A DNA stretch of 64,000 nucleotides. It comes from a virus. Under the pieces are notes generated by a model that saw only the letters and a program-made list of their open reading frames with translations, did no database searches and was not told the DNA's origin. Position 1 is the first letter of the stretch; the number at the start of each line of letters is the position of its first letter. The position numbers and the translations under genes were made by a program. The stretch lies in UHGV virus genome UHGV-0212009. One strand, given 5' to 3'. Of this stretch, positions 13,700 to 40,600 are shown in pieces.

Positions 13700-14590
13700 A
13701 TGATGAATATTCGAGTGTTTACGGCTTTCTCCGGATATGACTCTCAATGCATGGCATTGCAGAGAGTCGCCGAGTGTCATCCTGATTTTCGCTTCGATCT
13801 GGTAGGCTGGAGCGAGATTGATCCGAATGCCATTAAGGCACATAATGCAGCCTTTCCGCAATGGGCGGAGCGTAATTTCGGAGACATCACAAAAATAGAC
13901 TGGGACACAGTTCCGGACTTTGATTTGTTTACGTATTCAAGTCCGTGTCAAGACTTCAGTCTTGCCGGAGTTCAGAGAGGAGGGGAAGAAGGAAGCGGAA
14001 CGCGTAGCTCTCTTTTATGGGAATGTCGCAAAGCCATTCTCGCAAAACGCCCGAAGTATATGATCTTTGAAAATGTGGCTAATCTCGTAAGCGAGAAATT
14101 TATCCACACGTTTCGAGCGTGGGAACAAGAACTAGCATCATATGGTTATTCGAATTATTGCAAATGCCTCAATGCGAAGAATTACGGAGTGCCGCAGAAT
14201 CGCAATCGAGTCTTTCTTATCTCATTCCTTACAGGTCAGATATTTAACTTTCCGAAGCCTATCAAATTGGAGAAGCGGCTGAAGGATGTTCTCGAAACGG
14301 AAGTCTCGGAACGCTACTATCTTCCGGATGAAGTTGTTGCCCGGATGTTGGATAATGCTTCCGGACTATTATCCCCACCAGAAGCAGGTATGCCGAAGAT
14401 CCTTATTGAAAGTGAAGACGAATTTAAGAACATAGGGGGCAGACGGATAGGTCCATTAAACGTATATCAGGGCGGAGTATGTCGGACGATAAAAGCTCAA
14501 TATGGGAAGAACTCGCTTAACAACTTTACAAGGGCAGACAATTTCGGCGCAACGGCGGTCATTGAGATGGATTTAGATGATGGAAACTGA
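13700..14590 (+). CDS. DNA cytosine-5 methyltransferase, N-terminal part (motifs I-VIII)
   Basis: FSGYDSQ, SPCQDFS, ENV, PQNRNRVF. Confidence 0.9.
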   Translation: MMNIRVFTAFSGYDSQCMALQRVAECHPDFRFDLVGWSEIDPNAIKAHNAAFPQWAERNFGDITKIDWDTVPDFDLFTYSSPCQDFSLAGVQRGGEEGSGTRSSLLWECRKAILAKRPKYMIFENVANLVSEKFIHTFRAWEQELASYGYSNYCKCLNAKNYGVPQNRNRVFLISFLTGQIFNFPKPIKLEKRLKDVLETEVSERYYLPDEVVARMLDNASGLLSPPEAGMPKILIESEDEFKNIGGRRIGPLNVYQGGVCRTIKAQYGKNSLNNFTRADNFGATAVIEMDLDDGN

Positions 14591-15158
14591 TATAACAATT
14601 TGCATAAACTCGAAGGTTAACGGTAAGCAGCCGTCACTTGAGCATCGTATCTATTCAATAGAGGGCGTCGCTCCGGCGCTCACAACTGGCTTTCATTATT
14701 TAATAAGCATATATGAAGAATGCGTGGCAGAAGCATGGAAAAACTCAGAATTAGGGAAGCATCGAGCAAAGGATATGCGGAAGTCCGAATCGGCGGAGTG
14801 TTCGATGCTTCTTATCCCTAAAAGCAAAACAAGAAGAGGAAGAGTACAGGAAGGCGGAGAAGTTGCTCCGACGCTGACTACAAAGAACAATAATAGATTA
14901 TTAAGATACGAAGGACTTGACAAAGATATGAGATTAAGAATAAGGAGACTTACCGAAAGAGAATCGTTTAGGCTTATGGGAGTACGAGACTCCGACATAG
15001 ATAAGATTCAAGCATACGAAGATCCAGGAGTGAAGAAAAGCAAGATTTCTTCTACGGCACAATATGCTCTTGCCGGAAATTCTATTGTTGTGGATGTGCT
15101 GGCAGCAATCATGGAAAACATGTTCTATCCAGTTGTTGACTCCAATCTCCTTTTTTAA
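14577..15158 (+). CDS. DNA cytosine-5 methyltransferase, C-terminal part (TRD, motifs IX-X)
   Basis: RRLTERESFRLMG, YALAGNSIVV. Confidence 0.85.
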   Translation: MMETDITICINSKVNGKQPSLEHRIYSIEGVAPALTTGFHYLISIYEECVAEAWKNSELGKHRAKDMRKSESAECSMLLIPKSKTRRGRVQEGGEVAPTLTTKNNNRLLRYEGLDKDMRLRIRRLTERESFRLMGVRDSDIDKIQAYEDPGVKKSKISSTAQYALAGNSIVVDVLAAIMENMFYPVVDSNLLF

Positions 15159-15168
15159 AAATTAGGTT

Positions 15169-15792
15169 ATGACAAACACAGAGTTAATAGAGCCGTATTT
15201 CAAATCAATAGGTTTGAAGTTTATAGCCGGGAATAAGGATTCCATAGAGCCGGTTGCCGTATTTGTCTTACAGGATTACATCTACCAGGTGTTTAATAGG
15301 GACATTAAGAACATTCCTTTGAAGTTTCAAGCGAAGAAGATGCAGACTGATTGGCATAAGGCTAATGTGCAGCAGTTTACCAAGTTCTTTAATAGGCTTG
15401 ATGAGGAACGTAGGGACCGGATAATAAGCCTCATGGATGATTTTGAGACCTCTCTGCATAACGATATAGAGATGATGCGATTGAAGGTGCTTGATTGCTT
15501 GCCTGTCGAGGACGAAGATGTCCAGAAGGCAGTGGCGTCTTTGCAGCTGTGCAATATCCTTGCACAAATATCGCAGATGCACTGGGAGGGAATAGTCAAG
15601 GGAAGTCGTTTTTTGTCCGTGAAGCAGCACTATAACGACGCTGTAAGGCGATACTCATGCATGTTATCTGCCGGTCTCTTCGGTGGCGCTGGAGGTAAGG
15701 AAATCAATCATAAGGCCGAAAATGAGCTTCTTGGGTTTATTCGGAATTTTGAAAATAAGTTTGTGAAATGGATGACAGAAAAAAGTTGTTGA
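15169..15792 (+). CDS. Hypothetical protein
   Basis: 207-aa ORF in operon. Confidence 0.75.
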   Translation: MTNTELIEPYFKSIGLKFIAGNKDSIEPVAVFVLQDYIYQVFNRDIKNIPLKFQAKKMQTDWHKANVQQFTKFFNRLDEERRDRIISLMDDFETSLHNDIEMMRLKVLDCLPVEDEDVQKAVASLQLCNILAQISQMHWEGIVKGSRFLSVKQHYNDAVRRYSCMLSAGLFGGAGGKEINHKAENELLGFIRNFENKFVKWMTEKSC

Positions 15793-15819
15793 TTTTCTTG
15801 TAGAAAGTAACTAACTTTG
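15789..15819 (+). promoter_or_regulatory. Promoter upstream of ncRNA array
   Basis: TTG-N20-TAACTTTG. Confidence 0.7.
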
Positions 15820-15938
15820 CGTGTGTTCTTTCTATAACATTTATTGGTTTGTTTTTATGCGGTGACGCAGCCTGAACGGCATCTGTTGGAATTGTTAGCA
15901 GCCGGAGAGGGCTTCCTGGAGACAACCAGGAGTAAAAA

Positions 15939-15999
15939 GAGCGGAGTGGCACAGATGGCTACTGCTTTAGTTCGCGGGTTCGAGTCCCGCCTCCGCTCC
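15939..15999 (+). ncRNA. tRNA-like element 1 (no anticodon arm)
   Basis: GAGCGGAG/CTCCGCTC stem, D-like arm, 7-nt linker, T arm GCGGG-TTCGAGT-CCCGC. Confidence 0.7.
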
Positions 16000-16111
16000 G
16001 GTCTCGCGCGGTGACGCGATGCAACGGTGGCAGTAACTTTTATTTAGGTGATAGTGCTTGTTTCAGACTACCGGATAGCATTCCTGAGAGATAACTCAGG
16101 GCGAGACGACA

Positions 16112-16184
16112 CAGTGGTAATGGTTGACTGTCTTTTTGTTGATTTTTTCGGGCAGCTCGGGGTTCGATTCCCCGGCCACTACAA
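16112..16184 (+). ncRNA. tRNA-like element 2
   Basis: AGTGGT/GCCACT stem, CTGTC/GGCAG stem with U-rich loop, T arm CGGGG-TTCGATT-CCCCG. Confidence 0.65.
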
Positions 16185-16206
16185 CGACGCTGCGATAGCG
16201 TCTGGA

Positions 16207-16273
16207 GAGCCTGAAAGGCGGCGCCTTAGCCACGACTGTTATTTCCCGGGTTCGACTCCCGGCAGGCTTGCAA
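16207..16273 (+). ncRNA. tRNA-like element 3
   Basis: GAGCCTG/CAGGCTT stem, T arm CCGGG-TTCGACT-CCCGG. Confidence 0.7.
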
Positions 16274-16304
16274 GATTAGATATAGACGCTGCGATAGTGT
16301 CACA

Positions 16305-16386
16305 GGCGGGAATGGACCCTTTTTGGAGAGGATCAGTGTCACATGTTATTGGTTTTTTAGCGGTTCGATTCCGCTACCCGCCCCAA
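16305..16386 (+). ncRNA. tRNA-like element 4
   Basis: GGCGGG/CCCGCC stem, T arm TAGCGG-TTCGATT-CCGCTA, U-rich middle. Confidence 0.7.
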
Positions 16387-16454
16387 AACGCAGAGATGCG
16401 GCATCCGGACAAAGTAGTCCTGAATATATGGTTTAAATTTTTATGTCCGGCACA

Positions 16455-16550
16455 TGACGAGGTATGCTTACGAGGATACGCTATTGACTTTGGGGGCGGT
16501 TTGCTTCATAGCGGATAATCCTTTCCGGTTGGATCCTGGACTCGTCGCAA
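16455..16550 (+). ncRNA. tRNA-like element 5 (degenerate T loop)
   Basis: TGACGAG/CTCGTCG stem, long internal AGGAT-CGCTAT/ATAGCG-ATCCT arm, TCCGG-TTGGATC-CTGGA. Confidence 0.55.
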
Positions 16551-16569
16551 AATCAAAACAATAAATATT

Positions 16570-16998
16570 ATGGATAAGTGTAAAAAAGAAGGGACAATAA
16601 GAAATCTATTGTATGATATTAATTCATGTATAGATAAGATTGTTATGGCAAGGATTGAGGGGAATGTCTCGGCTGAGGCTAAAGCATTGATTCGCACGAA
16701 AGCGCGTATAGTTGAAACACTAGAAGATTTAATGGTCACATGCGATCCGTTAGATGTGATCCAAAAAACTTCCAAAGACGAAGAGTCTATTCCTTCTGAT
16801 GTTAAAGAACAAGCGACAGAGGCAGCGATACTAACGGCTTGCTCTGAATTCAAGAGATTCTGTGATACGATGATAGACTGTAGTGCAAACTCAGACAAAT
16901 CGGTTCCTGAAGTTTTTAAACATAAGAAATATTGGTTTGAATCTTTTGAACGCGAGTTAAGAAATAAATTACAGGCACATCAGCCTATGCAAGGATAA
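16570..16998 (+). CDS. Hypothetical protein
   Basis: 142-aa ORF with A-rich leader. Confidence 0.65.
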   Translation: MDKCKKEGTIRNLLYDINSCIDKIVMARIEGNVSAEAKALIRTKARIVETLEDLMVTCDPLDVIQKTSKDEESIPSDVKEQATEAAILTACSEFKRFCDTMIDCSANSDKSVPEVFKHKKYWFESFERELRNKLQAHQPMQG

Positions 16999-17034
16999 AC
17001 ACATACCAAATACTACAAAAGAAACAAATGGCAT

Positions 17035-17148
17035 AGAGGGGCAACAGACCTGCCACCTGCGGATTTACCACACTTGCTCTGCTGACAGGCCCGGTAAAGG
17101 TGGTGTAGGGTGACAGATAAGGGGGATGACGATTCCTGCCCCTCTTTT
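17035..17148 (+). ncRNA. Possible structured intergenic RNA
   Basis: AGAGGGGCA/TGCCCCTCT closing stem with inner GCCACC/GGTGGT and TTTACC/GGTAAA. Confidence 0.4.
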
Positions 17149-17277
17149 CAAAAGATATGTTAACCAAAAAGAGCAAACTAAATAAACTGCCAGTCCAAGA
17201 TTTGAGGGCGATTGCTCACTTCTTCAAGACTATCAAGAACTCTCTTAAGATGGATAGGCTACTGGAGGAACAAAATA

Positions 17278-17643
17278 ATGACTACAAAAGAAATAAAAGA
17301 CTTTGAAAGCCTGCTGAAGAGCAAAGGCTACGCGTATTATAATCAATGCCTTTCTTCAAACGAAAATTATGTCTATGGCAAATCATTCGACATCACTTAT
17401 GATGAGGATGGTGATAGGAATATAGGATATCAAGTTCTGTTCCGATTTTGGGATTGGAGAAAGTTTGGAAAAAAAGGATTATACGAATTTAGTCTTGATG
17501 TTGCCGTCTTGGTGTCTCAAGAACATAGGACTGACCTTGTACTTGGGCAAGAAGAGTACGATATTGAGAAGATAGAGCAGATTGCAGAGGGTTTCTATGA
17601 GTTCTGCAAGAAGTATATTCCGGGATGTGCTAAAGCAAAATAA
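17278..17643 (+). CDS. Hypothetical protein
   Basis: ATG 17278 (MTTKEIK). Confidence 0.7.
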   Translation: MTTKEIKDFESLLKSKGYAYYNQCLSSNENYVYGKSFDITYDEDGDRNIGYQVLFRFWDWRKFGKKGLYEFSLDVAVLVSQEHRTDLVLGQEEYDIEKIEQIAEGFYEFCKKYIPGCAKAK

Positions 17644-17717
17644 GCCTAAAAATTTCGCTTATTCATGCAAGTCATTGTAGTTAATTGATTATCTGTGAAT
17701 TATAAGTGTAAATTAAT

Positions 17718-17891
17718 ATGAAAATACCATTCAAGTACAAAGATGTTCAAAATAGAGCATCAAAAAAATACCAGGGTGTTTGGAAAAGATATGCCTTCCA
17801 AGCAGGAGTTTTGTGGGCAGTAGGACAGATATTCAAAGATAAAAACCAAGAGGATATCTTCAAAGAAATGGAGATGTTCGAGAATGAATAG
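17718..17891 (+). CDS. Small hypothetical protein (57 aa)
   Basis: MKIPFKYKDVQ...AFQAGVLWA; read by eye, below ORF-track cutoff. Confidence 0.55.
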   Translation: MKIPFKYKDVQNRASKKYQGVWKRYAFQAGVLWAVGQIFKDKNQEDIFKEMEMFENE

Positions 17892-17894
17892 TAA

Positions 17895-18059
17895 ATGATG
17901 CAAAGTATATCTGACATAGAGAACGATGTTCTGCGCTTGCGTCTGAAAGACATCAAGAGCGCATTCCACCAAGCAGAATTGGCAGGAGGAGAAAAGGAAA
18001 ACAACTTCTGCATCCCGATAGATTTATTTAATGAACTCAAAGAAAGTATATATGAATAG
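17895..18059 (+). CDS. Small hypothetical protein
   Basis: MMQSISDIENDVLRLRLKDIK; fills gap in operon. Confidence 0.5.
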   Translation: MMQSISDIENDVLRLRLKDIKSAFHQAELAGGEKENNFCIPIDLFNELKESIYE

Positions 18060-18240
18060 ATTTCACAAACTATTATGCAAGCACTGCATAGCCAACATTG
18101 ATGGCGTGTGTCATCGCTATGTAGAACCTTTGCCTGTATGTTATTGTCGACACGCAGAGATTTACAAAAAGAAGTATGAAGTTATTTTTACTTTTGGCAT
18201 AAACGACAAATTAAAATCAGTAAAAATAGTATGGAAGTAA
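18052..18240 (+). CDS. Small Cys-rich protein
   Basis: CKHC...C...CYC. Confidence 0.5.
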   Translation: MNRFHKLLCKHCIANIDGVCHRYVEPLPVCYCRHAEIYKKKYEVIFTFGINDKLKSVKIVWK

Positions 18241-18728
18241 GAATTAAAAAATTATGTAAAAATGCGGTCATTCCGTCTTATGCTCATACATCAGATGCAG
18301 GTATGGACTTGACTGCAACATCTATGAAAATAGATGAAGACGGCAATGTGGTGTATGGCACAGGCATAGCAGTAGAAATACCCACAGGCTATGTTGGTCT
18401 TGTGTTCCCCAGAAGTTCTAATTCCAAAAAGACACTATGGCTGACAAATTCAGTCGGTGTTATAGATTCGGGATATAGGGGTGAAATTACATTCAAGTTC
18501 CGTCCAAGTATTGCAATAGTACCAAATTTTTGGGCAAAGATTAAACTGCGCTTGTCAGGGCTTAAGGCTGCAAATGTGGTGCAGTATGCGTCACCAAAGA
18601 TGTACAAAATCGGTGATAGAATAGGTCAGATCATTATTCTTCCATACCCGTCTATTGAATTTATAGAATCTGATTTTCTGTACCCGTCTGATAGAGGAGA
18701 ATGTGGAAATGGCTCTACAGGAAAATAA
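18231..18728 (+). CDS. dut: Trimeric dUTPase
   Basis: AGMDL, PRSS, GVIDSGYRGEI, RIGQ, RG..GNGSTG. Confidence 0.95.
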   Translation: MEVRIKKLCKNAVIPSYAHTSDAGMDLTATSMKIDEDGNVVYGTGIAVEIPTGYVGLVFPRSSNSKKTLWLTNSVGVIDSGYRGEITFKFRPSIAIVPNFWAKIKLRLSGLKAANVVQYASPKMYKIGDRIGQIIILPYPSIEFIESDFLYPSDRGECGNGSTGK

Positions 18729-18890
18729 TAAAAAAGTGCGGGAATCCAAATCTTTTTGGAACTGCAAGAATGGCTTTTTTGCAGGTGGTTGTCGCTGCCG
18801 TGTGTTAGGTGGCGACAATATCTGCCTGCTTGAATTGAATGAAGATGATATATGTCCGTATTTTGAAAAAGACAATTAAAATTTATAATT

Positions 18891-19067
18891 ATGGCATGGA
18901 TAGCAAGAGATAAAGACGAGCGTCTTTATATTTACAAGGAGTTACCAGAACGAGTAAGCAATGAGTGGTTGACCGATTTTGAAATGATAGAACTGCCGGC
19001 GAATGCAGATGAAAAACTCATTGGAAAGCATATTGATTGGACTGATGAACCTGTAAAGATAGAATAA
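18891..19067 (+). CDS. Small phage protein (58 aa)
   Basis: MAWIARDKDERLYIY...WTDEPVKIE. Confidence 0.7.
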   Translation: MAWIARDKDERLYIYKELPERVSNEWLTDFEMIELPANADEKLIGKHIDWTDEPVKIE

Positions 19068-25641: not shown

Positions 25642-28600
25642 ATGGAGACATACAATAAGAAATACAAGATTGTCGCTCCTGATGGATACGTCGAGGAGTG
25701 GTCGCAAGCGGATTTTGAAAAAGGCGGAGCAGCGCTTATGTCTGATAATCCGGACGTCAAAGTATATAGTCAAGAATCATACGACCCGACGCAGCAGTAC
25801 GGAACGAATGTAGCGTATGGCATCGAGGACGAAGACGGGTATTTTGAATCATGGACTGCTGATGAATGGAGTAAAGGCAAAGATGCATTGCTTAAGGACC
25901 ACCCAAACCTCAAAATATATGTGCTTGGTGATGCCTCTCAGGACTATCATCGTCAAAAAGCAGAAGAACAGCGCCAGGCCATTACTGATTTTGATGCAGC
26001 GAATAAGGACTTTATTCGCGCACATGAGCTTGATTCGCTCATAATGAGTGAAGGCGGTGCAGTTAGTGCAGATTATGACGCTAACGATAAAAAATATAAT
26101 GATCTTCTTGCGGAGCGAGAGCAACTCGTATCGAACTATGCGACCAACCCAGCAAACAGGCAGGATTGGAGTGTAAGTGCCCAGTATGCAGACCAGATTG
26201 CATCCAATTATGAATCTAAACTCAAAGGCATGCGTGATGCTACGCGTTTCAGCAACGCTGCGACATCTATGTACTCTGGCAATATTCGTGAGAATAACGA
26301 CTATGTGTTGTACGAACAGGCGCGTAAACTTGCAAAGGACGCAGCGAAAGCTTATGCAGCACCTTCTTATGGTGAGCACACCGGCTTTGGTGGTTATGTC
26401 AAGGATATGGGCACAGGAGCTGGCAAAGTGTTTAGCGATGTTGACTTCTGGAGTCGTGGCTTATCTGCTATTGACCGAGATAAAAATGTGCGTAAGATTG
26501 TCAACTCGCTGTCTGAAAAAGGTATAAATGTTTTGGAGGCTACGGAAAAAGAGTTGTACGACAATCTTTCTCCGGCACAGATAGCTCTTATATCATCATT
26601 CTTGTTGGATGCTCAGGCACAATATGAGCGCTCGCTTGATACTGCTCGTGGATACAATGCCGGTGTCACGTTTGCGGAGTCCATAGGATATATGGCCGAG
26701 TTCCTTGCTACGGGCGGAATCGCGCGTGCTGTTGGCTCTGCCGGAAAGGCCGCATCGTCCGGGTTCGGCAAGCTGCTCGCAAATGAGCTCTCCAAAGGCA
26801 GCGAAGCGGCAATTAAGAGCAAAGTGTCACGGGGCCTAATTAACACCTTTACCAAGGGCGGCACAAAGTCTTTGAGCAAAAATGCAAAGGCGGCTACAAA
26901 TATAGCAAGCAAGGCAGCCGGAAAGGCATATTCTTATGGCATAAGACCAGCAGAAAGCGCTATATGGCACACAGCTCTGCAACCGTCCACATATAGAACC
27001 ATATCCGAGAATCTTACACAAATTAATGATAACGGTGATTTGGTAAAAGCCGGCTCCGCTATCTGGGGTGGAGTTCTCGACCAACTAATTGAAAACTGGT
27101 CCGAATCTATGGGTGGAGCCGTAGAGGACATTCTCGGACTGCCGCTCAAGGGCGTTGGCGCTGCTGGCGAGAAGATACTTGGCAAGACAACCCTTGGTCA
27201 GTGGGGGAAGTGGTTAGCAGATTCAGCGAGCGCCAAAGTACTGCACGAGGCAGGATTCAACGGTCTTATAGGTGAAATGGGAGAAGAGTGGCTTGGTAAT
27301 GCGGCTCGTGTTGGCCTTGACCTTATGACAAAGGATGAATTTAAGGACTTTGCCAGCTTCGAGTCTCAAGTGGATATGGCCGCATCTTTCGCGCCTATGA
27401 CCCTTTTTGGCCTTGGAACGTCATCATATGCAGCAGCCAAGCAAGATAAAAACTATAGAAAGCTTGCAAAAGACATGAGAGGCGTGCTTAATCGAGCCGG
27501 CTGGAGTGAGGAAGATGTAGCCGACGTGATGGATGTCAAGCACACAAAAGAGGAGATAGCTCGGACTCTTGCTCCAGTACTGCAAAGCATTGTCAGAAAT
27601 TCCCAAGACGGGAAAGTGGCACAAGAGGATTATATAACTACGCTTAAGTTCGCCCAGGCAGCAGCAATACAAGAAGTGCTTTCTTCCGCTCAGACAATAG
27701 AGCAGGAACGCGCTCGAAAAGAAATGCAAGAAGAAATCGCGCAGAACCTTGGAGCCGTGCCGCAAGAATTTAAGAATGAGGACGGGACTACTGTAATATA
27801 TCCTACCGACAATAGAGGAAACTTCTCATATACGCAGGTTGAGCAAACCCCTTCCGGTAATTACGGTGTAAATGTAGTAACGACCGCTAAGGATGCTAAA
27901 GGAGAGTATTTCGTCATTCCGGATGATGATTCGGATACAATGCTGCTCAAAAACCGTAACGATGCTAATGCGACACCTCGCTTTATAAGTCGCCAAGAGT
28001 TTCAAGAGCAAGTTGATGCCGGCTTAATGACAACGGAGACATCAACTCTTGACAATTATCTGGATGCAAGGATTGAAGAAAAACGCGAAATACAGCGCAA
28101 GGACGCCGAGAACGCGCAACTTGAAGACAAGTATCAGCAGGTAGCACAGAAGATGCAAGTCGGTTCTAAAATCAACGCCGGCACCGAGGATGCCCCTATG
28201 GAGGGCGTTGTGCTTGCCGTGGATAGAGGTGGCGTAACTGTTGATTTCGGACAGCCAGTGCTGTTGAATGGACGCAATATGCAAATCCACAAATTGTCAT
28301 TAGAGCAAGCAGGTAATTTTGTTGGTATTGATGCGCGGATAGAAAGCGAGCAGCGCTCAGTGGAAGAACAAGTGGAACAAGACGAGATTAATTCCGCCAA
28401 AGTAAAGGCTTACAATCAGTCACTTGCCGGTGAGCAGTTTACCGTTGACGGACATCTGTATACATATGTTCGCATGTTTGAAATGCCACAATTGGATGAG
28501 GATGGAATCGAAATAGCTCATATAGTGGCTACTGATGAGCAGGGACGAGATGTTGAAATGGACATTCCTTTGGAAGACATCAAAACGAGAGAGACAGATG

Positions 28601-31600
28601 CGGCCGTTAAAAACAACGAGCAGGTAGAGGAGGTAAAGGACGATAATGTGCTGCGTGACATCCATGGAAATCCTATCCCAATGCGTGTTAATGAAAAAAC
28701 GCAGCAGGAGGAGGTAGATAAACGTACCTTCAAGAATAAAGATCCTGAGGCATATTATGCCTGGAACGACGCTCAAAGAGGTGGCAATACTGAGGACTCC
28801 ATGCAGGCTATAACGGCTGATATTGCATCAGAAACGGCCCAATTGACCGCGTTACAGAAGCAGCTGACCGTAGAGACGGACCCTGATATGCGAGACGAGT
28901 TGCACGAGAGTGTCAATAAAACACAGAATCGAATCAATCTTCTTGAAGGCATATATCATAAATACGATGCTGAGAACAATTTCCAAGATGAACAACTAGA
29001 TTTTGCAAGACGCATTTATGACGTACAAAGCAAACTAATCAATGCCAAGACACAGGAACAAGTAGATGCGCTTATCAAGATTAAGGCGGACTTATTCCGC
29101 CAATATCAGCTCGCCACAGTGGATTCGGCAGAAAATGTAATGTTGGCCAAGAGAGCTGTTGAATTGCAGCAGGTGATTAATTCCGTTGCGGATGTCCCTG
29201 TGCAAGTAGTGTTTGAGAGTAATATAGAAGCCGTTATGCGTACAGATGGCGCATCCGAGGCAAGTATAAATCGCGTATTAAGCAAAGTGGCCGAACTGAG
29301 AAGTGCCCGTATTACATCGGGCAAAGACCTGGTTATGACCGGTTTGTATAATGAAGGCAAAGTTTATATCTTTGCTGAAGGTAATACTGATGCTTCTTCG
29401 GCTCTTTTGACCTACTATCACGAGAGGCAGCATATGCGTACTGCCGAGGATCCGGAAGCAATGAATAAGGTCCTTGTTCTTGCCAGAAATGAGCGAGACA
29501 ACCTCATACAGGTACTTAGCCTCTTGACTGATAATATCGCTCCGTATCAGGGCGCCAATAATCAGGAATTGGCGGACGAAATTGTTGCCTCCGCAATGGA
29601 AAAAGCATGCACGGACGAGAAATACGAACAAACACTGCGGAGCCGTGGTTTAAGTGAAGAATTAATCAATATAATTAAAACAGAATATGCAAAACAACGA
29701 AGAATTACAGACAGTGACGCTGTTCGACAGGAAGACTGGAATGCGAATGTCCGTACAAGTGACACCGGAAACGGCCAACAAGATGGCGCAGTTGAGCAAG
29801 GAGCATCCGGAAATGGACAGTTGGGCACTGCACAGCTTAGCACTGACACAGGAATAAGCGAAGAGGAGCCTCAGGTAGACACAACTCCACGTGATTTCCG
29901 TGGTAATCCACTTCCGCTCGAAGCAGACGGGACTACTGTTGATCAAAAGACCCTTTGGGAGAACGACCCGGAAGCCTGGGCTCGATGGAATGACGACATT
30001 AACAATGATGCCGGCGCAGACTCTATTGCATACATTAATGCAGTAATAGAGAAACTGAATAAAGCCATAAAGACCAACGAAAAGGCCTACGCTAAGGCTA
30101 CAGACTTCGATAAGCGAGACACGCTCAAAGGGCAGATTAAGGAAGAAAAGCAAAGACTGGACGAACTTCAGGCTATTCTTCGTGCATATCGTCAGAAGCA
30201 AAGCGAAGAGGCTAGCGCTAAAATGCAAGCCGACGCTGTGCGCGCAAGGGAAGCACGTAAAGCAAAGGCGGAGGAACTTGCGAAGTATAACACGGAATCG
30301 CTACAAGACGTCAAGAGAAAGTGGGAAGATGCTCCGAAGGATACCGGTGATGTGGATTCAATTGTTCTTGCTAACGGTGAGCGTATTGAGGGACATTATG
30401 TTCTCACGGAAGCATTTGCGCCTACTCCGTCACATGATCCTGTAGCCGGATACTCAATGACCAAAGGTTTCCCGGTTGATGAAAACGGCAATACTGTCAA
30501 CGACCGCGATTATCAGCATGACAAAGAAGCGCAGAGATTGGTCGAGCAGAAGGCATCATCATTTGACCAGCGGGCCCTTCAGACACCTGTAGTAGTAAGC
30601 AGCGACGGTGTTGTTCTATCAGGCAACGATAGGACAATGGCATCACAAATAGCAGCTCGACAAGGGACTGATAATAATTATAATACTTACCTTGCATCCC
30701 ATCCTCAGCGATTCGGATTTACGGCGGATCAAATTTCTAACTATAGCAATCCGCGTGTAGTATTTGTTCCCGACGCGCCAATGCCTTATACGGCAGCTAC
30801 GTTTGCCAAGTTCAATGCAGAGGAAAAAAAGACACAATCCAAGACCGAGAGCGCCGTCAAGGCAGGAAAGACAATCTCTCCGGAAGCAGTTGAGCATATT
30901 GCAATGATTGTCAACGAGCATGAATCAATCGCTGAGACCTATTCCGACAAAAATGCTGTAGCCGCTATACTCAGAATCCTTATTGATTCTGGTGTTGTTC
31001 AGGAGTCAGAGATTAGCCGCCTTATGGACGGAGATTCGCTATCTGGTACGGGAGAAGACCTTGTGGAAAGCGTTATCCTCGGTGCCGTGATGCGAGAGGA
31101 CGCGCTTAGGTGCGCAATGGGCGACAAGATGATAAGGCGGAGCGTAATGTCTGCTCTCACCCAGCTTCTCAAGAACAACACATACGGAGAGTATTCGCTT
31201 TCTGGAGAGTTCTCCGACGCGGTTGTGCTCTTGTATCAGGCCAAACGCAGCGGACTTGTCGAACCGGGAGAGAGTGTAGCAAACTTCATGAATCAGCCGG
31301 TTCTTGATGGATTCGGAGAGAATCCGCTTGCGGAGGTCACCGTGCAGATGCTTGCGAACACAATCAACGGAACGAAGGTCAATGGACTGAAAAATGTTCT
31401 ATCTTTATATAACGCAAGGGCGGAAATGGCAGCATCGGGACAGGCGGATTTGTTCCTTGGTTCCGTTGAGGCTAAAGAGCAAATTATCAGAGAAATACTC
31501 AATGAATATGGATACAACACAGAAACCTTCACAGCAGCCGCAGCAGAGCAGCGACCAGGACAACAATCCGAACAGCAATCAAAGCAAGGAAGTTCAGAAG

Positions 31601-34600
31601 AACAAGCTCCTGATGCTGTTTCAGGCGATGCAGGAAGCGGAGCAGAAGAAATAAACCAAGTTCGGGCGATTGAGGAACAACGAAAAGTTGTAGACACCGA
31701 GCCAACCGAAGCGCAGAAAGAAGCGGGTAATTATCGCATGGGCCACGTGCGAATAGATGGATTGGATATTACCATAGAGAACCCGCGGGGCAGCATACGT
31801 AAAGGTACAGATGCAGACGGTCATGAGTGGCAAACCGAAATGCATAATGACTATGGGTACATCCGCGGCACCAAGGCTGTGGATGACGACCATATTGATG
31901 TGTTCCTGTCAGACAACCCTACTCGGGGCAAAGTGTATGTTATCGACCAAGTGGATCCGAAGACCGGAGAGTTTGACGAGTCCAAGGTTATGTATGGCTT
32001 TGATTCGGAACAGGACGCAAGGGAAGCTTATCTGTCCAATTATGAAGATGACTGGCAAGGCCTTGGTAAAATCACCGAGGTTAGCAAAGAAGAGTTCAAG
32101 AAGTGGATTGATTCGTCCACACGGAAAACCAAGCCATTCAGCGAGTACAAGAGCGTAAAGCCTGAAAGTTTAGAGTCTCCAAAGACAGGTGCATTTGGAA
32201 CTATATACACCCAGTTCAAAGGCAAGCCACAAGAAGCTATTGCTTTCCTCCTCGAAAAGAAAGAGGGTGAAGCTGTGGGGGCATTGCACCATAAAGACAT
32301 TGGCGACATTGATTTGGTATGGGGAAAAGAAGGAACCGCCAAAAGCGACGGCTTTGGTCTTGCCAAACTCGCGAAATATCATCCAGAAGTTCTTGGTAAC
32401 CTGCAAGAGATACTTGATGCTATGGTTGTTGTCGATCGCACAGACAATCGTGTGCAACTGGAAAGCGAAACACACCAAGCATCAGTACGTCTAACATGGG
32501 ATAGTGAGAAAAAGAATTGGTTGCTTACTGCCTTTGAAAAGAAAAACAGTGTCTCCGACAATACGACAGACACTGTAGGAACCGCTGAAAGCGGCAAGCG
32601 GAATGACACAGCTACTCCGCAAAACACTGTTTCTGACGGCAAATTTACACAATCTTCTGAAGCAAAGCAAGAAAACGGAGAATTATCTGACTTCGCGACC
32701 GAAATATTTAACGACACACTCTCTGGTATTCCAGAGGAAGTAAGGGCACGTGTGACTGTCCGTGAAAGCAGCACGGGGGATGAAGTCGAAGAGAACTTCA
32801 TACAGTCCTATGACCTCGATGGCAAGCCGTCCGGAATCAGCAGGGTGGAACTAATCGATGCCAAGATAGACGAAAACCCGACAAGGTTTGTCATAGACGG
32901 TTCCGATGTTGACGCACCGAAGCCGGAACAAGAGCGGTGGCAGCGACTTGCCGATGAATATAAACAACTGAATCCTGAAGTAATAATCATTGACTGGGAG
33001 GAATCTGGCATCAGTTTTAGAACTTTCAGGGAGGCTTTGGATTTCCTTTCTTGGGCGGAATCATTCGACAAAGAGAATGATGCGGTTTCTTCTCAATCCT
33101 CTTATAAAAAAAATGAGCCTTTGAATAAAGCAGAAGATTCTCGTTTCCGCATAGTGGAGTCGACAGACGAGGAAATTCTTTCGGATTCGAATCAAAAAGA
33201 TTCAGAATACTTTGCTGCTATAGAACGTGGAGACATGGAAGAAGCGCAGCGTATAGTGAATGAATTTGCGCAGAAAGCAGGTTATACGACTATTTCTGAT
33301 TACCAAGGGACATCTGCATTTAATGGTGCAGCACCCTATGGCAACCCTTACTTCCTCACCAAGGAAGAACGTAAGGATGCCTGGGATAATGATGAGTTTG
33401 AAGGAGACCAGACATTAGGCGATTATATAGAACGGGGTATCGATGCGAATAACCTCGATTTCGTAGCCTTGGACCCTCGTAATTATCGTGCCGCCAACTC
33501 TATGCGCAAGGAGGCTATTGACAACGTGCGTAATGCCATCCAGAAGAGGAGCAAAACTATAACTATGTTTCGCAGTGTTCCTTCCGAAATAAAAGAGGGT
33601 TCGTTTAGAAATGGCGACTGGGTGACTCCAAGCCGTGCTTATGCGGTAGATAATGCCAAAATTCACGGTTGGGGGGATAACTATAATATCATTAAACAAA
33701 CGGTATCTGTAGACGAAATATGGTGGGATGGTAATGATATTGCTGAATGGGGCTATGGTCGTGAAGAAGATTATGTGAAAGACACAGACTTTGCCTATAA
33801 AAATACAAAAAATAATCGTAAGCTGCTTGATGTTATTACTCGTGATGATAAGGGGAATATAATTCCGCCGTCCAGAAGATTCGACTCGGGCAATGCGGAT
33901 GAAAGATACCAGATTTCTGGCAGGAAAGCCATCGACAAAAGTTCAGAAGAATCCAGAATCGCATACGAGGCTGTGAAGGAGCAACTAGATAGGATAGGAA
34001 TCCCTGTGGAATTGCTGTCGGATCAGGCGATGAGAGAAATGGCTATAAACGCAAATGCACTCGAAACCGTCTCCTCTCAAGATGAGTATCAACAAACCGT
34101 CGTTTCAAGTGCATCTGGAGCAAAGGTAATAAATAATTTGGATAATCTGGCTAAATCTCTTGAAAATGAGCCCAAAACTAAGGAGAAGACATTTTTGGGG
34201 GCATTAGCAAAAGCTCTTGATGCAAAGAAACACGGGAGCAATAGCCAGTATGCAACATTCGAAGCAAAGAATGGTACGGTTGTTACTATCAGACTTGCGA
34301 ACCACAATGTCGCTACTTCAACCTTTGATAACCATGGGGAGAATGATGGTATTAGTATAGTGGTTAGTGCTAGAAAGAATAATGGAATAATAAATGATGG
34401 CAAGGCTCATGTGACTGAATTCTATTACGATGCTATCAAACTTCGAAAAGCAGAGGGTAAACCGCTTGTAGATATAGTCAAATCTGTCAAGCAGTCTCTC
34501 TATAGTGGGGAATACAAGGACACCACTGGGCTTGCACAGCGCGAAGAGGTCAACGCCAAAGATGTGCCGGAATTTATGACCGTCTATCATGGCAGCGGTG

Positions 34601-37600
34601 CCAAGTTCGACAAATTCGACCACTCCCATATGGGTGAGGGTGAAGGAGTCCAGGCATATGGCTGGGGAACATACGTCACCGAGGTCGAAGGAATCGGTCG
34701 GACATACGCAAAGGCTATGGCCGCCAAAAACGACGGAGCTCTGCCGAAACGCAATCTTTACACCGTAGAAATTCCGGAGGATATAAATTCAGCTCTATCC
34801 AAGGATGAGATTTTGAAGGGGCTCGATAGTCTTGGCAAAGAATTATTTTCAGGATACGGCTTGAATGATGTGCAAATCAATGCTGTGTTCGGGACAACGC
34901 GAGAGTGGTATAAGTACGGATACACTGCAACAAGTGGCTTCTTTCCTCTAAAAGAAGCATTTAAGACCTATGGAATCGATGCAGAAACTATAGACAAGAG
35001 AATTCATGACGAGGCAATGGAAGACCGGCAAAAAAATCCAGCGGGATATGGATTTTACTTGAATTGGGCAGGTAGAATAGACATGTGGATTGAGAAGTTG
35101 GGTATCAGTGAGGATGAGTATGAACGCTATGACATGGCGACCGGCAGGGATGCATATCGTTATCTTGAGAGTAAACTAGGGGGCGCAAAAGAAGCCTCTG
35201 ATTATTTGTCAGATCACGGCTATGTTGGAATATCCTATCCAGCGCAGTACAGGTCCGGTGGGCGTTCTGATGGAGCCAGGAACTACGTCATCTTCAATGA
35301 GAATAACGCGAAGATAGTAGACCGCATCGAATTTCTGCGTGAGCCTGACGGAACAGTGTATGGCGCGACGGTGGGAGGAAAGATTTATCTCAATCGAGAG
35401 CGTCTGAATCCGAACACTCCAATCCACGAATACACCCACTTGTGGTTCTCCGCATTGAAAGACGCAAACCCTGAACTTTACAAAAGAGGCGTTGAGCTGA
35501 TGAAGCAGCTGCCTATATGGGAGGAAGTCAGGACTGACCCGAATTATGCGAACCTTTCTGGAGACGATGCGATAGCGAGCGAATGTCTTTCCCGCCTCGT
35601 CGGTGACAAGGGAGCGGATGTCCTTACAAAAATGGCTAAGGACGCGAATGTCAGGGGCGACATCATTGGTACGGCAAACAGAATTTCACTCATCGAAAAA
35701 TTCAAGGACTGGCTGAAGAAGTTCTGGACTTGGGTAAGGGATTCATTTACCCCATGGACTAAAGAAGAGGCTGCAAGGGTGTCAGTGGACGACATCCAGA
35801 ACATGGTGCTTTCTGACTTGGCAAAGGGTGTAAATCCTTTGGCCAACGCTCGGGAGGAATCAGAAATGAAGAAGACGAACGATAAGTACAATGATGACGA
35901 TTTTGAATATCTCATTAAGCGCAATCCTGGATCATTCGATGCTCCGGAAAACGGTATACGGTTCCGTATAGTTACCGAACCAAAACTAATTGAACAGCTA
36001 AACTTGGAGCCTACGGTAAAGGTATTCAGGGCAATGCAGATTGTTGATGGGGAACTCTTTCCTCCAATGTCGATTACAGTTAACGGTAAAAAACGCGAAC
36101 CATCAAAGATTGGACAATGGGAGCAGAGCGAAGAAAATCCGGAACTTGCTGACGAGGACGGATATTTCAAACTGAATAAGGGTAAAAACGACAATGGGAA
36201 GAATAAATCTCTGAAGGCAAAATATAACCCTTATTTCCACACATCATTGTTTCCTCTGAATGACCAGTTCAGCGAGGCGCAAACTCGTAGCAACATTGTT
36301 ATTGTTGAAGGCCGCGTACCAAAGAGTGAATTAACATCCGGCTATCGTGCTGAAAAGGCGAAGAATTCCGTTGGTAAGATGACTTGGCATTCCGGGCCTA
36401 TTGCAGGTATTCTTGGACAATATGAAGGCAAAGAACGTGAAGTTATCCTCTCTCGTTGGTTCAAGCCAGAAAGAATCGTTCCATACGACCAAATTGCTGA
36501 CCTTTCTGTCCAGATGTTCAAGGGGACCTCTCTTGAAAAGAATCCTCTTCCGTCGAATGTATTCCATCCCGATCTTCGAAATGAACTTGAGAAACGCGGC
36601 GTATCATTTGTGGAAACCAATAATCGGGGGCAGCTTCTTGATGATGCGGAAGGCCGGACTTGGTCCTCTCTTTACGGAAAGGAGGCTGCTGGCAAGAAAG
36701 CAAGAGTTGAGGCTAAAGAGCAGGATGTTGTAGACATATTCTACGACGAAGAGATGGAATTAGCTAATAAAATATTCAATAAGGAGCTGCAACAACAGAT
36801 TGATGGTAAGCTACCAAGCGACCATATATATAGAATGGGACAACCAGGAAGAATATTGCTGTCAACTGGTGTGCCAGATTTGCCTATACAAATGAACGCT
36901 TCAAGGCTTAAAACAAAAGCTACATCATATGGGCATGACTTTGAATTGAGTGAAATAAAGGATTTGGTAAAAGCATTGCAGACACCTTTGGCAGTATTCG
37001 CGTACGGTGATAAGTCAAAAGCACAGAATATAATTGTCCCATTGCAGAAAGACGGAAAGAATTTCATAGTCGGTTTGTCGCTCAACCCGACAGTTGGAGG
37101 AAGAAGCCTTGAAATCAACAGTATAAGGAATGTGTTCCCAAAAAACAACTATGAATGGTTGAATTGGATAAGCCAAGGCAAGACGTTGTATTTGAACAAA
37201 GAAAAAGTTCAAACCCTCATAAACCAACAGCGAACGATTCTCGCTGACGTGGAATATCTGGATTTGAACTCTGTTGCGAATATAGTAAAAAGCTTTGAGA
37301 ACCCAAGCGGTAATGAGAAAAATATTAAGGCTGCTGGCAAGAAGGTTGTCAAGACTCTTGCTGGTGTCCATAATATTACAGAAGAAAAACTTCGTAAGGC
37401 CCTAAAGTTAGGAGGCTTTGCCAATCCGAGTCTCGCCGTCATTGATACGGAGAAGAGCAACCATGAGAATTTCGGAGAGATTTCGCTGATAGCTCCGTCG
37501 GCTCTTGTTAACAAGGAGAGCGGCCGTACAGCTGGTACGTGGACTACTGATGCCTATACTCAGCGTTATCCTTCCGTGGAACGTCAGATGAGCGACAAAG

Positions 37601-40600
37601 GATATGAGGAGTTCTCTAAGTGGGTGGACGGTCTTGACTTTACAGACAGCGAAAAGGCTGAGATAAAGCGTCAGACAACGGATGCCCTTGAGGACAACCG
37701 TGAACCTGCCTGGGAGCTGATGTATCTGAAGGAAAAGGGTATTGACATCAAGGCGTATAGTTCTGACGTGAGCTATGGTTGGGAACCTGTTGCCGAGACT
37801 TATGGGAGTGTGGATGATGTGCTGAAAGCTATGGAGGGTGACGCAGAATTGGACGAGAAGATTCGGAACCTTGTCAAGGTAGAGATTGCTTCTCCATTGT
37901 TGAGCACAATCAGAAACACGATACGTCTTCAGATTTATGAAGAGACAGGCAAAGTGCCAAGTTCTTTCAATCTTGCTGTAACAAAAAGAGTACATGAGAT
38001 ATTTGACAAAGAGTATGCACCGAAGCTCTTTGACGAGAACGGTCAGGTAAAGTCGGAAGATGTCCGTAAGGTCGTTGGGGAAATGCTGGCAAAGTATAAT
38101 GACACTAAGCGTTTCAACTTCCAGAAGGCTAAGGCAAGGGCAAGTACTTATGTGCATAACAATGGAATGTATACAGACTATCTGAGATGGCAGGAAGAGA
38201 AACTTGAAGATTACGGCACAAAGGGCAGGATATTCCGTGGATACAATAGCGACGGTACTCGACGTTATTCTCCAGAGACTCTTGAGAACGTATCAAAGGC
38301 TATGTCGGAAAACGCTGAGGGCGAGACGAATGGCAGTGAGTATACCTCATTCGGTAGTTTCATCGCTAAGTTGGCTCCTCATGTAGACAGTACTGAGGAG
38401 ATGCGTAGCAGGAAGGACAAGTTGTCATCAGCAGACGATGAGAAGAAGGAATTCTACGACAAGTGGGAGGATACCTATTATGCTCTTGCCAAGGAGCTTT
38501 ACGATGATGTCTACTATGGCGAGAAGCGACTTCATGAGATCGTTTTGCAGCAAGACCCAAAGAGATACGCCAAGAAGGAATACGGCATCACGCTGAGTGC
38601 ATCCTTCATGAAGAATCTGGAGGCCCTAAAGAAGGCTATACGTGAAGACTTGAAGAGTCCGTACTTTGAGACCAAGTTTGAGCGTCCTGTGGGTTTGAAC
38701 GAGTTTGCGGCTGCTGTTGTGCCAGATGATTTGGGTGCTGACGTGAGGAAAATGTTGGACGAATCCGGCATTGCCTTGTATGAATATGACCCTGCCAAGG
38801 AGGGTGACCGCAGTAGGGCATTCAATGAGGCTCTTGAGGGTAATGATAAGATTCGCTTCCGTATCGTCGGTGGTAATAGCGGATATGTGGGGTACTCAAT
38901 GAGCAAGAGAGCGGCAGAGGCAAAGGAGGAAGGTCGTTTCCCTAAAACACAGTTCGTAAAGGAATATGGTGTGCCGGCTGCGCATCTTGATGCTCTCGTA
39001 GCTGCTGGCATTATTAGCAATGATGAGTGGCACCATACATCTAAATTTGGCAATAAAACTCCTTTCTATGGCTGGGTAGAGGATAGCTTCCTGCAAGCCT
39101 ATAATGACAATAAGGCCGCTATAGAAGAGATCATCGAACAGTATAATGGGACAGATCCTCTTTCTTTTACGGAAAGGCGGAAACTTACGGAAAAGATTGC
39201 GGCCATTATAGAAAGTTCAGAGAGCGTCGTATCAGCAAGAGAGCCGGCGGAGGCACTAATCGCTCAACGCGAAGCCGAGAAGGCCCACAGGCGCGATGTG
39301 ATGTCTGAAATGGCCAACAGCGATGGAAAAATCAAAAAGTCTGGTAATGAATATTGGTACAATGCAGATAATCAAGTTTCATTACACATGCACGATAATG
39401 GCCGGATTATAGATCTTGAATTCCCAATTGGCACGAAGACGCAATCTCAAAGGGATGAGTTATATAAGGCTGCCCAAGAGGAGTTCCGCGAAGCTTATGA
39501 GCGCGCAGAAAAGATCCTCCAGGATAAGGAGAACGAAAACTTCGAAGAACCAAAGCAGACACCCGATGTGGAATCTTCCGAAAGTCGTTTCAGGGCTGTT
39601 AAGTCATACGACGGATTACAGTCGTTTGGGCAAGACAAGCTGTTTGACATCATGCACAAGACTTTTGCGGATCTCCCGGAAAGCACGCGAGCCAAGATTA
39701 CAAAACTTGCCCCTGCTCATGGGTACAAGTTCCATGAAGCGACGGCTGATTACTTTGCATCCCTGGCGACCAAAAAAGACTTGTCCGAGGAGGAAAAGAT
39801 GGATGTTATGGTGGTACGCGATAACATAAAAGCCGCATTGGATATTGACTGTTTGTCGTGTAGTGAGACTCTTTGGGCTCTTTATAATACGGTTAATAAA
39901 AACTCTAAAGACATTCTTTCAATCGCACGTAGGACTCTTGTGGCGGATAAACTTGGCTTTATGCCGGAGGACAGAAGCAAACGAGATGATGTCAAAGATG
40001 GCGTACGTTTCTCAATCCGAGAGAACTCTCATGATGCATCTGCCGCGGAGATTTACAACAAGGCAACGTCTTATTGGTATAATCGTCTCCGAGAGAGTTA
40101 TGTCGATATGAATGAGTCCGTAAACGACCTTGTGGCCGCTATTGAATCGACTACCAAGCAGCCGGCACAGGCGTTTGAGGATGTTAGGCTTGCCATTAAT
40201 CGTCAGTCTTCCAAGGGTCTTAATCAGATGACAAAGTTCATGTCTGACTATTTGGAGCCAATGTGGGGCGCTGTCGGCAAAGTGATGGAAACTACAGGAA
40301 TGACCTACGATGAAGTCGTGCGTTATGTGATGCTCAAGCATGCGGTAGAGCGTAACGATGTATTTGCTCGTAGAGATGCACGGCGGTTCTATGAGAGGAA
40401 GTGTGATTCCATTATCAGCAAACTGAAGGACGAGAAAAAGCAGAAAGAGAATATGCGGAAGAGAGCAATGGCTAATGCCGAAATATCTATCGCATATGCG
40501 CTTGATCAGGAAATCCAAAACATTGATAAGCGAATTGATTCTGCTTTGAAAGCTCTTGACCGCCAGCTTGTGAAGGTTGATAATGGGACTTCGACCAAGT

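Follow-up and report, generated by a model that had tools for sequence, protein, structure and literature searches.

An array of five tRNA-like units lacking an anticodon arm in a predicted temperate phage

What use might a phage make of the ends of tRNAs in the absence of the tRNAs themselves? The window analyzed here, the whole 64,000-nt stretch of the viral genome UHGV-0212009, contains no true tRNA gene and no tmRNA according to ARAGORN, and a search of both strands for 5-bp T stems with 7-nt T loops returned five matches only, at 15974, 16158, 16246, 16359 and 16524. All five T-arm/acceptor modules of the window fall within 15940-16550, between open reading frames (ORFs) at 15169-15792 and 16570-16998. 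When the 736-nt region was shuffled with its dinucleotides preserved (n = 5,000), 4,969 shuffles held no T arm, 31 held one and none held more, and the rest of the window outside these 736 nt holds none. Every T arm is closed by an acceptor-like stem of 6-8 bp, which bears out the array of five units proposed in a preliminary description of the locus.

The units depart from canonical tRNAs. The acceptor and a T arm with the T-loop consensus are present, with a G at position 56 in unit 5 and six of seven acceptor pairs in units 2 and 4; the anticodon arm with its 7-nt loop is missing, judging both from the empty ARAGORN output and from the alignment of unit 1, which lacks the arm. Pseudo or undetermined calls had been expected from tRNA finders: ARAGORN makes no call at all, and in sensitive mode the Rfam tRNA model matches unit 1 alone (33.7 bits), while a fast scan of the whole window against Rfam at gathering thresholds returned no match. 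The motif GGTTCGAnTCC is seen in four units, as described, unit 5 being the exception with TTGGATC. The letters after the unit are CGG for unit 1 and CAA for units 2-5; the claim of four CAA ends stands with a proviso, namely that in units 2 and 5 a discriminator precedes CAA on a 6-bp count of the acceptor and not on a 7-bp count (first pair C-A or U-G), which makes the C of CAA the discriminator. The acceptor sequences differ among all five units, and no anticodon remnant is found in any of them, their T arms being intact.

All elements described below lie on the plus strand. Unit 1 (15939-15998) consists of a 7-bp acceptor extended by a G-1:C73 pair, which we take to be the mark of histidine in tRNA, a D arm, a short linker where the anticodon arm would be, a T arm and the trailer CGG. 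Its D/anticodon region had been described as deleted; the Rfam tRNA alignment retains the D arm, and the anticodon arm alone is missing. Unit 2 in its short form (16112-16184) has an acceptor, a stemless AATGG, a hairpin with a pyrimidine loop, a T arm and CAA. An alternative 5' acceptor strand at 16026 had been taken as its start, but the short form is slightly more stable (-51.9 versus -50.3 kcal/mol), is the one picked by an outside covariance search (model R1, built from the frames of 12 other phages) and leaves the alternative strand free for pairing inside a neighboring spacer RNA. On these predictions, unit 2 most likely starts at 16112/16113. Unit 3 (16207-16273) is made of a 7-bp acceptor, AAAGG, a 32-nt middle, a T arm and G-CAA; unit 4 (16305-16386) of a 6-bp acceptor, AATGG, an exchangeable middle, a T arm and C-CAA; and unit 5 (16455-16550), near the right end of the cassette, of an acceptor, a 62-nt folded middle, a T arm with G56, and CAA. 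Units 2 and 4 each have one mismatch when the acceptor is drawn with 7 bp.

The AATGG, AAAGG and AATGG of units 2, 3 and 4 stand beside the 5' acceptor strand, and this AAWGG is, judging by its letters, a stemless remnant of the D loop. The idea that unrelated inserts had replaced the D/anticodon region holds for the middles, which vary, and fails for AAWGG, still present in units 2-4. Unit 5 has ATGC where units 2-4 have AWGG (16462-16470; T loop at 16529-16535), and it alone among 341 modules compared has G at T-loop position 56; the other module without C56 is the tRNA-Ile of phage T5, with U56 and GA in the D loop. This single case suggests that the elbow pair G19-C56 has been swapped in unit 5.

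Fold z-scores of single units are modest (-0.74 to -2.52). At equilibrium, the whole 732 nt favor long-range pairing between units: the acceptor of unit 3 is well populated (0.90-0.97), and those of unit 2 (0.17-0.19), unit 1 (at most 0.12) and units 4 and 5 (0.0) are not. Since only the unit 3 acceptor is well populated in this fold, a model in which all five units form needs co-transcriptional folding or stepwise cutting. Positions 16491-16499 in the middle of unit 5 are a perfect 9-nt complement of the 3' end of unit 4 (16378-16383) plus an added CCA, a match noticed post hoc that may be due to chance; for the other unit ends, complements within the cassette reach 4-5 nt at most.

The preliminary description did not include two features: the gain or loss of whole modules, and folded RNAs in the spacers that separate units. 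Spacer RNA X1 (15858-15931), before unit 1, comprises a GNRA hairpin (GTGA loop), a helix P1, a purine internal loop, a helix P2 and an AGAYAA hairpin; its fold z-score is -2.75, and changes in relatives at 15869, 15871 and 15873, read by hand, preserve pairing. Spacer RNA X2 (16007-16100), before unit 2, repeats the hairpin-P1-loop-P2-AGAYAA architecture with a variable apical part: positions 16071-16131 are identical in the relative from metagenome run X10 and 16071-16117 in that from run X6, and 16040-16070 varies. The common fold, including a 4-bp P1 and a variable tip, marks spacer RNAs X1 and X2 as paralogues at the level of predicted structure, a relationship drawn from pair lists by coordinate because MAFFT misaligned the pair. 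The AGAYAA hairpin occurs twice in the window, a count reached by none of 100 shuffles, and in none of 197 other loci.

A small hairpin stands ahead of each unit: GCGGTGACGC twice, a GACGC stem twice (h2 at 16186-16202 and its copy h3 at 16285-16301, identified as a repeat family and by folding) and a GAGA-loop hairpin once (h4, which together with a long irregular hairpin spans 16389-16450 in the fold and pair list). The h2 pattern matches 16 loci in IMG/VR, and no T-arm array is present at any of these matches. Ribozyme and riboswitch readings were rejected, as 14000-19000 has no such Rfam match at E <= 10.

Upstream of the array lies a promoter motif of the Bacteroidota sigma-ABfr type (15789-15819), with TTG at -33 and TAACTTTG at -7, and a predicted start near 15826. 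The consensus used is that given in the text of PMC7366714 available to us. TTG-N20-TAACTTTG occurs at 12 sites in the window, this one included, and several TAnnTTTG promoter motifs are intergenic. The -7 box is retained in the relative from run X5 though the letters after the box differ. A sigma-70 scan did not list a promoter here; the consensus promoter first described is a motif of Bacteroidota type. At the other end, no terminator is predicted after unit 5, and an ORF (16570-16998) begins 20 nt past it, whose protein has no match among phage records. Similarity to the relatives stops at the CAA of unit 5, at 16552 in the X10 contig and at 16557 in the X5 contig, with unrelated sequence beyond. 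Two candidate features of the cassette were discarded: a 26-nt inverted repeat closing it, which is not conserved in relatives, and a gene at ORF 16048-16518, inside which relatives show many 1-2 nt indels.

Close relatives of the cassette were recovered as pieces on contigs from eight wastewater metagenome runs (depth 2-4, differences read by hand), each variant resting on one contig. In run X10, the T stem of unit 2 is altered on both sides at three of five pairs around an identical loop, and the hairpin before this T stem is re-paired by a further double change, while a G-U pair in it has become A-U; the loop of the unit 2 hairpin is pyrimidine-rich both there and in the window. Seven other one-sided changes, in h0, P1, P2 and unit 5, also preserve pairing. 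One change goes the other way, and a second may. C16247A, seen in runs X1 and X2 (probably a single data set deposited twice), disrupts one pair in the T stem of unit 3; G16310A may do the same in the acceptor of unit 4, its partner lying near a contig end, and two differences near the ends of that contig are unlisted. In run X3, unit 3 has no listed substitution and the middle of unit 4 has 20, along with four deletions. Whole modules vary as well. The X10 contig starts with the leader fused to 16008, and in the X6 contig 15868 is fused to 16071 via 56 other letters; in both, module 1 is absent between direct GCGGTGACGC repeats, and the leader adjoins module 2. A contig from run X5 that matches units 1 and 2 over 18-21 nt resembles a normal tRNA-Trp and was excluded.

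Farther afield the cassette is patchy. A more distant phage at a metagenome locus has the same upstream gene (69%) and lacks the cassette at the same site. Relatives of the flanking proteins were found in no IMG/VR or GTDB contig and at one metagenome locus, without the cassette. The T-loop motif occurs in none of 13 portal-related records (1 of the 13 complete), the junction patterns have no match in viral and genome collections, and the cassette has none in plasmids. Model R1 found nothing in five related phage records, in a search that had no positive control, and the first 50 kb of the 65-kb Bacteroides phage BKO1-TP3 contain no array. The compensations in relatives, the loss of modules and this patchy presence indicate that the cassette is selected, modular and accessory, and not a decaying tRNA cluster. 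Comparison of the contigs shows, at the level of their letters, an acceptor/T-arm shape under selection, middles that are exchanged and whole modules that are gained or lost. Two earlier proposals gain support here: that the units are selected structures and not decayed tRNAs, from the compensatory changes in a relative, and that they carry variable payloads, from the replaced middle of unit 4.

The phage itself encodes an integrase, HTH genes, an SSB, a methyltransferase, a P22-like portal, a 5,873-aa polyvalent protein and a terminase, and is a temperate phage by its integrase and HTH genes. Its host is probably a member of the Bacteroidota: the portal is 32-34% identical to the portals of three Bacteroides phages and 63% identical to a protein of a Prevotella MAG. 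The polyvalent protein (25642-43263) has ddrB-ParB, InPase, PBECR1, MuF_C, PBECR5 and LPD38 domains, of which PBECR1 and PBECR5 are predicted RNase-fold domains. A C5 cytosine methyltransferase (13700-15158) is divided between two neighboring ORFs, both of which match PF00145 in part. Downstream of the cassette, the intergenic region 16999-17211 contains a long irregular hairpin, a GGTGACAG motif and a G/C hairpin ahead of a T run; it has no Rfam match and is possibly a further RNA element or a terminator.

How could such a cassette work? The reading that we favor, and hold to be somewhat likelier right than wrong, is that host tRNA-maturation enzymes cut it into stable small RNAs whose exchangeable parts bind host proteins. 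The whole cassette would be transcribed from its own Bacteroidota promoter. RNase P would cut 5' of each acceptor, as the geometry of the units suggests, and a 3' nuclease would trim at or after the discriminator, followed by addition of CCA, as geometry and the CAA trailer suggest. The modeled units fit a substrate of RNase P and the CCA enzyme. These cuts would release five tRNA-capped RNAs together with spacer RNAs X1 and X2 and the h4 hairpin, and would also give the downstream message a free 5' end. Modules are gained or lost at the repeated leader hairpins, as the contigs of close relatives show. The tRNA shape would direct processing and shield the RNAs from nucleases; the work itself would be done by the variable middles and spacers, as ligands or decoys for proteins and not as antisense RNAs.

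The CAA trailer agrees with processing by the host tRNA pathway, as far as trailers in comparable phages can indicate. On four comparable phage contigs, units with a canonical anticodon arm end more often in CAA (17/40) than in any other trailer, CCA accounting for 7/40; CAA is thus a usual trailer of tRNA genes that do not encode CCA in phages of this sort. Among the other units of these contigs, which include some true tRNAs missed by the rule, 28 of 52 end in CAA. The target first suggested for the units, anticodon nucleases, is poorly supported: an anticodon loop is absent from the units and, in the part of PMC11555353 available to us, a phage tRNA no longer gave rescue once its stem-loops or its anticodon had been changed, requirements that such decoys would fit poorly.

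In place of the inserts, the frames themselves may do the work. Five acceptor ends and elbows could soak up enzymes that attack tRNA 3' ends or acceptor stems, the middles being filler; candidate attackers are the CapRel/toxSAS pyrophosphokinases, the MenT nucleotidyltransferases and acceptor-cutting nucleases. We regard this as doubtful while giving it more weight than the remaining alternatives. It accounts well for the acceptor/T half being the conserved and compensated part, for the freely varying middles and for the five different acceptors, the presumed His-like G-1:C73 of unit 1 among them, and an accessory cassette is what counter-defence elements often are. Filler, however, would need neither the independent folds that spacer RNAs X1 and X2 keep nor their duplicated hairpin, and a family with a fixed leucine-like frame (below) combines a constant acceptor with long, diverse inserts.

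Less likely still, the frames would be cis-acting punctuation or stability elements of the downstream early message, or the 730 nt would act as one uncut RNA. The short distance of 20 nt to the next ORF without an intervening predicted terminator, the preference of the equilibrium fold for pairing between units and the perfect 9-nt complement in the unit 5 middle of the CCA-tailed end of unit 4 all lean this way. Punctuation would nevertheless make five tandem frames with no gene between them unnecessary, and neither version sits well with relatives that vary in the downstream sequence, do not conserve the 26-nt terminal inverted repeat and can lack module 1.

P1 C4 and P4 CI are antisense RNAs matured by RNase P, and the units could likewise pair phage or host messages through their loops. 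The temperate setting, with integrase and HTH genes, and the pyrimidine-rich loop that unit 2 keeps in the window and run X10 speak for such a role, which we nonetheless find improbable, slightly more so than the preceding reading: none of the eight middle and spacer segments has an above-chance match in the rest of the window (the best is 13 nt, a length reached by 14 of 60 shuffles) or in the 58 start-codon regions tested, and no C4 is found by Rfam. Antisense targets within the window were rejected on this ground, the segment matches being at chance level. A cluster of captured tRNA genes in decay, or a neutral array of repeats, would explain the tRNA score of unit 1, the imperfect acceptors, the one T-stem-breaking change and the patchy distribution; it is the least probable reading and, going by the variants, already largely refuted by four double-sided compensations in the X10 relative, by T arms intact in five of five units without anticodon remnant and by the lack of any true tRNA gene in the window.

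The closest parallels to the processed, tRNA-capped RNAs that we favor come from T4 and T5. Species 1 RNA of T4 (rnaC, NC_000866.4 70908-71046) has, as here, an acceptor-like stem and a canonical T arm around a long folded insert; like the units of the window, it shows GG soon after the 5' acceptor strand without a D stem and a genomic end A-CAA. It is a single 139-nt RNA of a lytic phage, encoded at the end of a true tRNA cluster, whereas the window has five frames, no true tRNA and a temperate setting, as well as gain and loss of modules. RNA1 and RNA2 of T5 (NC_005859.1), annotated there as 'tRNA-like stable RNA with unknown functions', have an acceptor, a D arm and a T arm around a long insert replacing the anticodon arm. 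They retain the D arm, which only unit 1 does in the window, and they lie among true tRNA genes and measure 125-144 nt, in contrast to 60-94 nt here. When the folds are compared, the defining feature of this type, an acceptor and T arm that enclose an insert other than an anticodon arm, is present in the window, and the neighborhood of a true tRNA cluster is absent, the 64 kb having no tRNA gene. Homology was not detected: blastn against 50,697 phage records gave only pieces of 22-31 nt, none of them in T4 or T5. By analogy, the cassette would work like rnaC, RNA1 and RNA2 but is no sequence homologue of them. In the parts of PMC3014915 and PMC9697503 that we could consult, the roles of the T4/T5 stable RNAs, rnaC included, are unassigned.

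Other RNAs share some of these parts. YrlA of M. smegmatis shows that an anticodon-less module can undergo tRNA-type processing, according to the accessible portion of PMC4201824. The window differs from YrlA Y RNAs in having no YrlA Rfam match and no GNCGAA Ro60-binding motif, and no Ro60/TROVE family member is found among the 52 phage proteins scanned. The tRNA-like domain of tmRNA has an acceptor, a stemless D loop, a helix for the anticodon arm and a T arm. Units 2-4 look alike in this respect, but the window has no tmRNA call, tag peptide, Rfam tmRNA match or G3-U70 acceptor pair. In engineered tRNA scaffolds and polycistronic tRNA-gRNA arrays, tRNA ends provide cut sites and a stabilizing frame for an insert; the array of the window differs in being natural and in its minimal frames. 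By the sequence features tested, the cassette is not a tRNA, tmRNA, YrlA or C4 RNA. Our literature search, which reached few older or subscription papers and no supplements, found no publication on such cassettes.

Carried further, the favored reading would make this a natural polycistronic tRNA-scaffold cassette, in which minimal frames act as cut-and-protect parts and modules are shuffled by recombination at repeated hairpins, delivering changing RNA decoys against Bacteroidota defence proteins, acceptor-end attackers included. We offer this extension tentatively and would not expect all of it to hold. If true, the phage would possess a counter-defence cassette made of RNA only and resembling a CRISPR array, and the stable RNAs of T4 and T5 would be explained as well. 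Decades after they became known, rnaC, RNA1 and RNA2 still have no assigned function, and they lie hidden in groups of true tRNA genes. In the window, RNAs of this kind occur by themselves in a cassette of 730 nt that has a promoter motif of its own and natural variants, which have or lack a module or carry exchanged middles. The compact cassette can be expressed whole in laboratory Bacteroides, so that the question of function is directly testable.

Anticodon-less frames extend beyond this phage. The pattern of a D arm, a short linker and a T arm yielded 23 IMG/VR loci; 12 were aligned, leaving out two tRNA-Cys, two duplicates, two GC-rich loci of other build and five without a closing acceptor. 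All seven acceptor pairs show double changes in this alignment, and 98.9% of its cells pair, a value inflated by choosing the rows by eye. Model R1, made from these frames, places units 1, 3, 2 and 4 as the top four of its ten hits in the window (43.4, 18.4, 15.6 and 12.3 bits), with unit 5 undetected up to E = 5. A second pattern gave 137 loci from 4 of the 64 parts of IMG/VR, from which about 2,100 stretches are estimated; on this estimate for one frame pattern the class is large. tRNA annotation misses or miscalls such frames.

The loci of this second pattern hold a family (L055-L191 and L192-L195) with a fixed leucine-like frame, 162 distinct units from 185 matches, and middles of 22-159 nt; some of the 162 may be true tRNAs. 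Its inserts are diverse, 83 of them falling into 73 clusters of at most two members. The units often lie beside true tRNA clusters, many are given spurious identities by ARAGORN, and a small GGAAAGAC-type hairpin is found within 60 nt upstream in 9 of 162. This AGTCAGG family has a fixed acceptor, a Leu-type D arm and a purine (mostly A) discriminator, whereas the acceptors of the window all differ: the two have their architecture in common, and not their sequence.

Three further kinds of locus were noticed. In three phages, at L027, L032 and L038 (about 1330-1490), a conserved non-coding segment of about 150 nt that starts with TAGCCC and has no Rfam match lies directly 5' of an anticodon-less frame. 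In L029 (about 1230-1560), from a GC-rich phage, several T-arm mini-units are tightly packed behind a true tRNA-Asp. L020 (about 1490-1770) has a tRNA-like unit with a short hairpin for an anticodon arm, back to back with a tRNA-Met, and a partial tmRNA match nearby.
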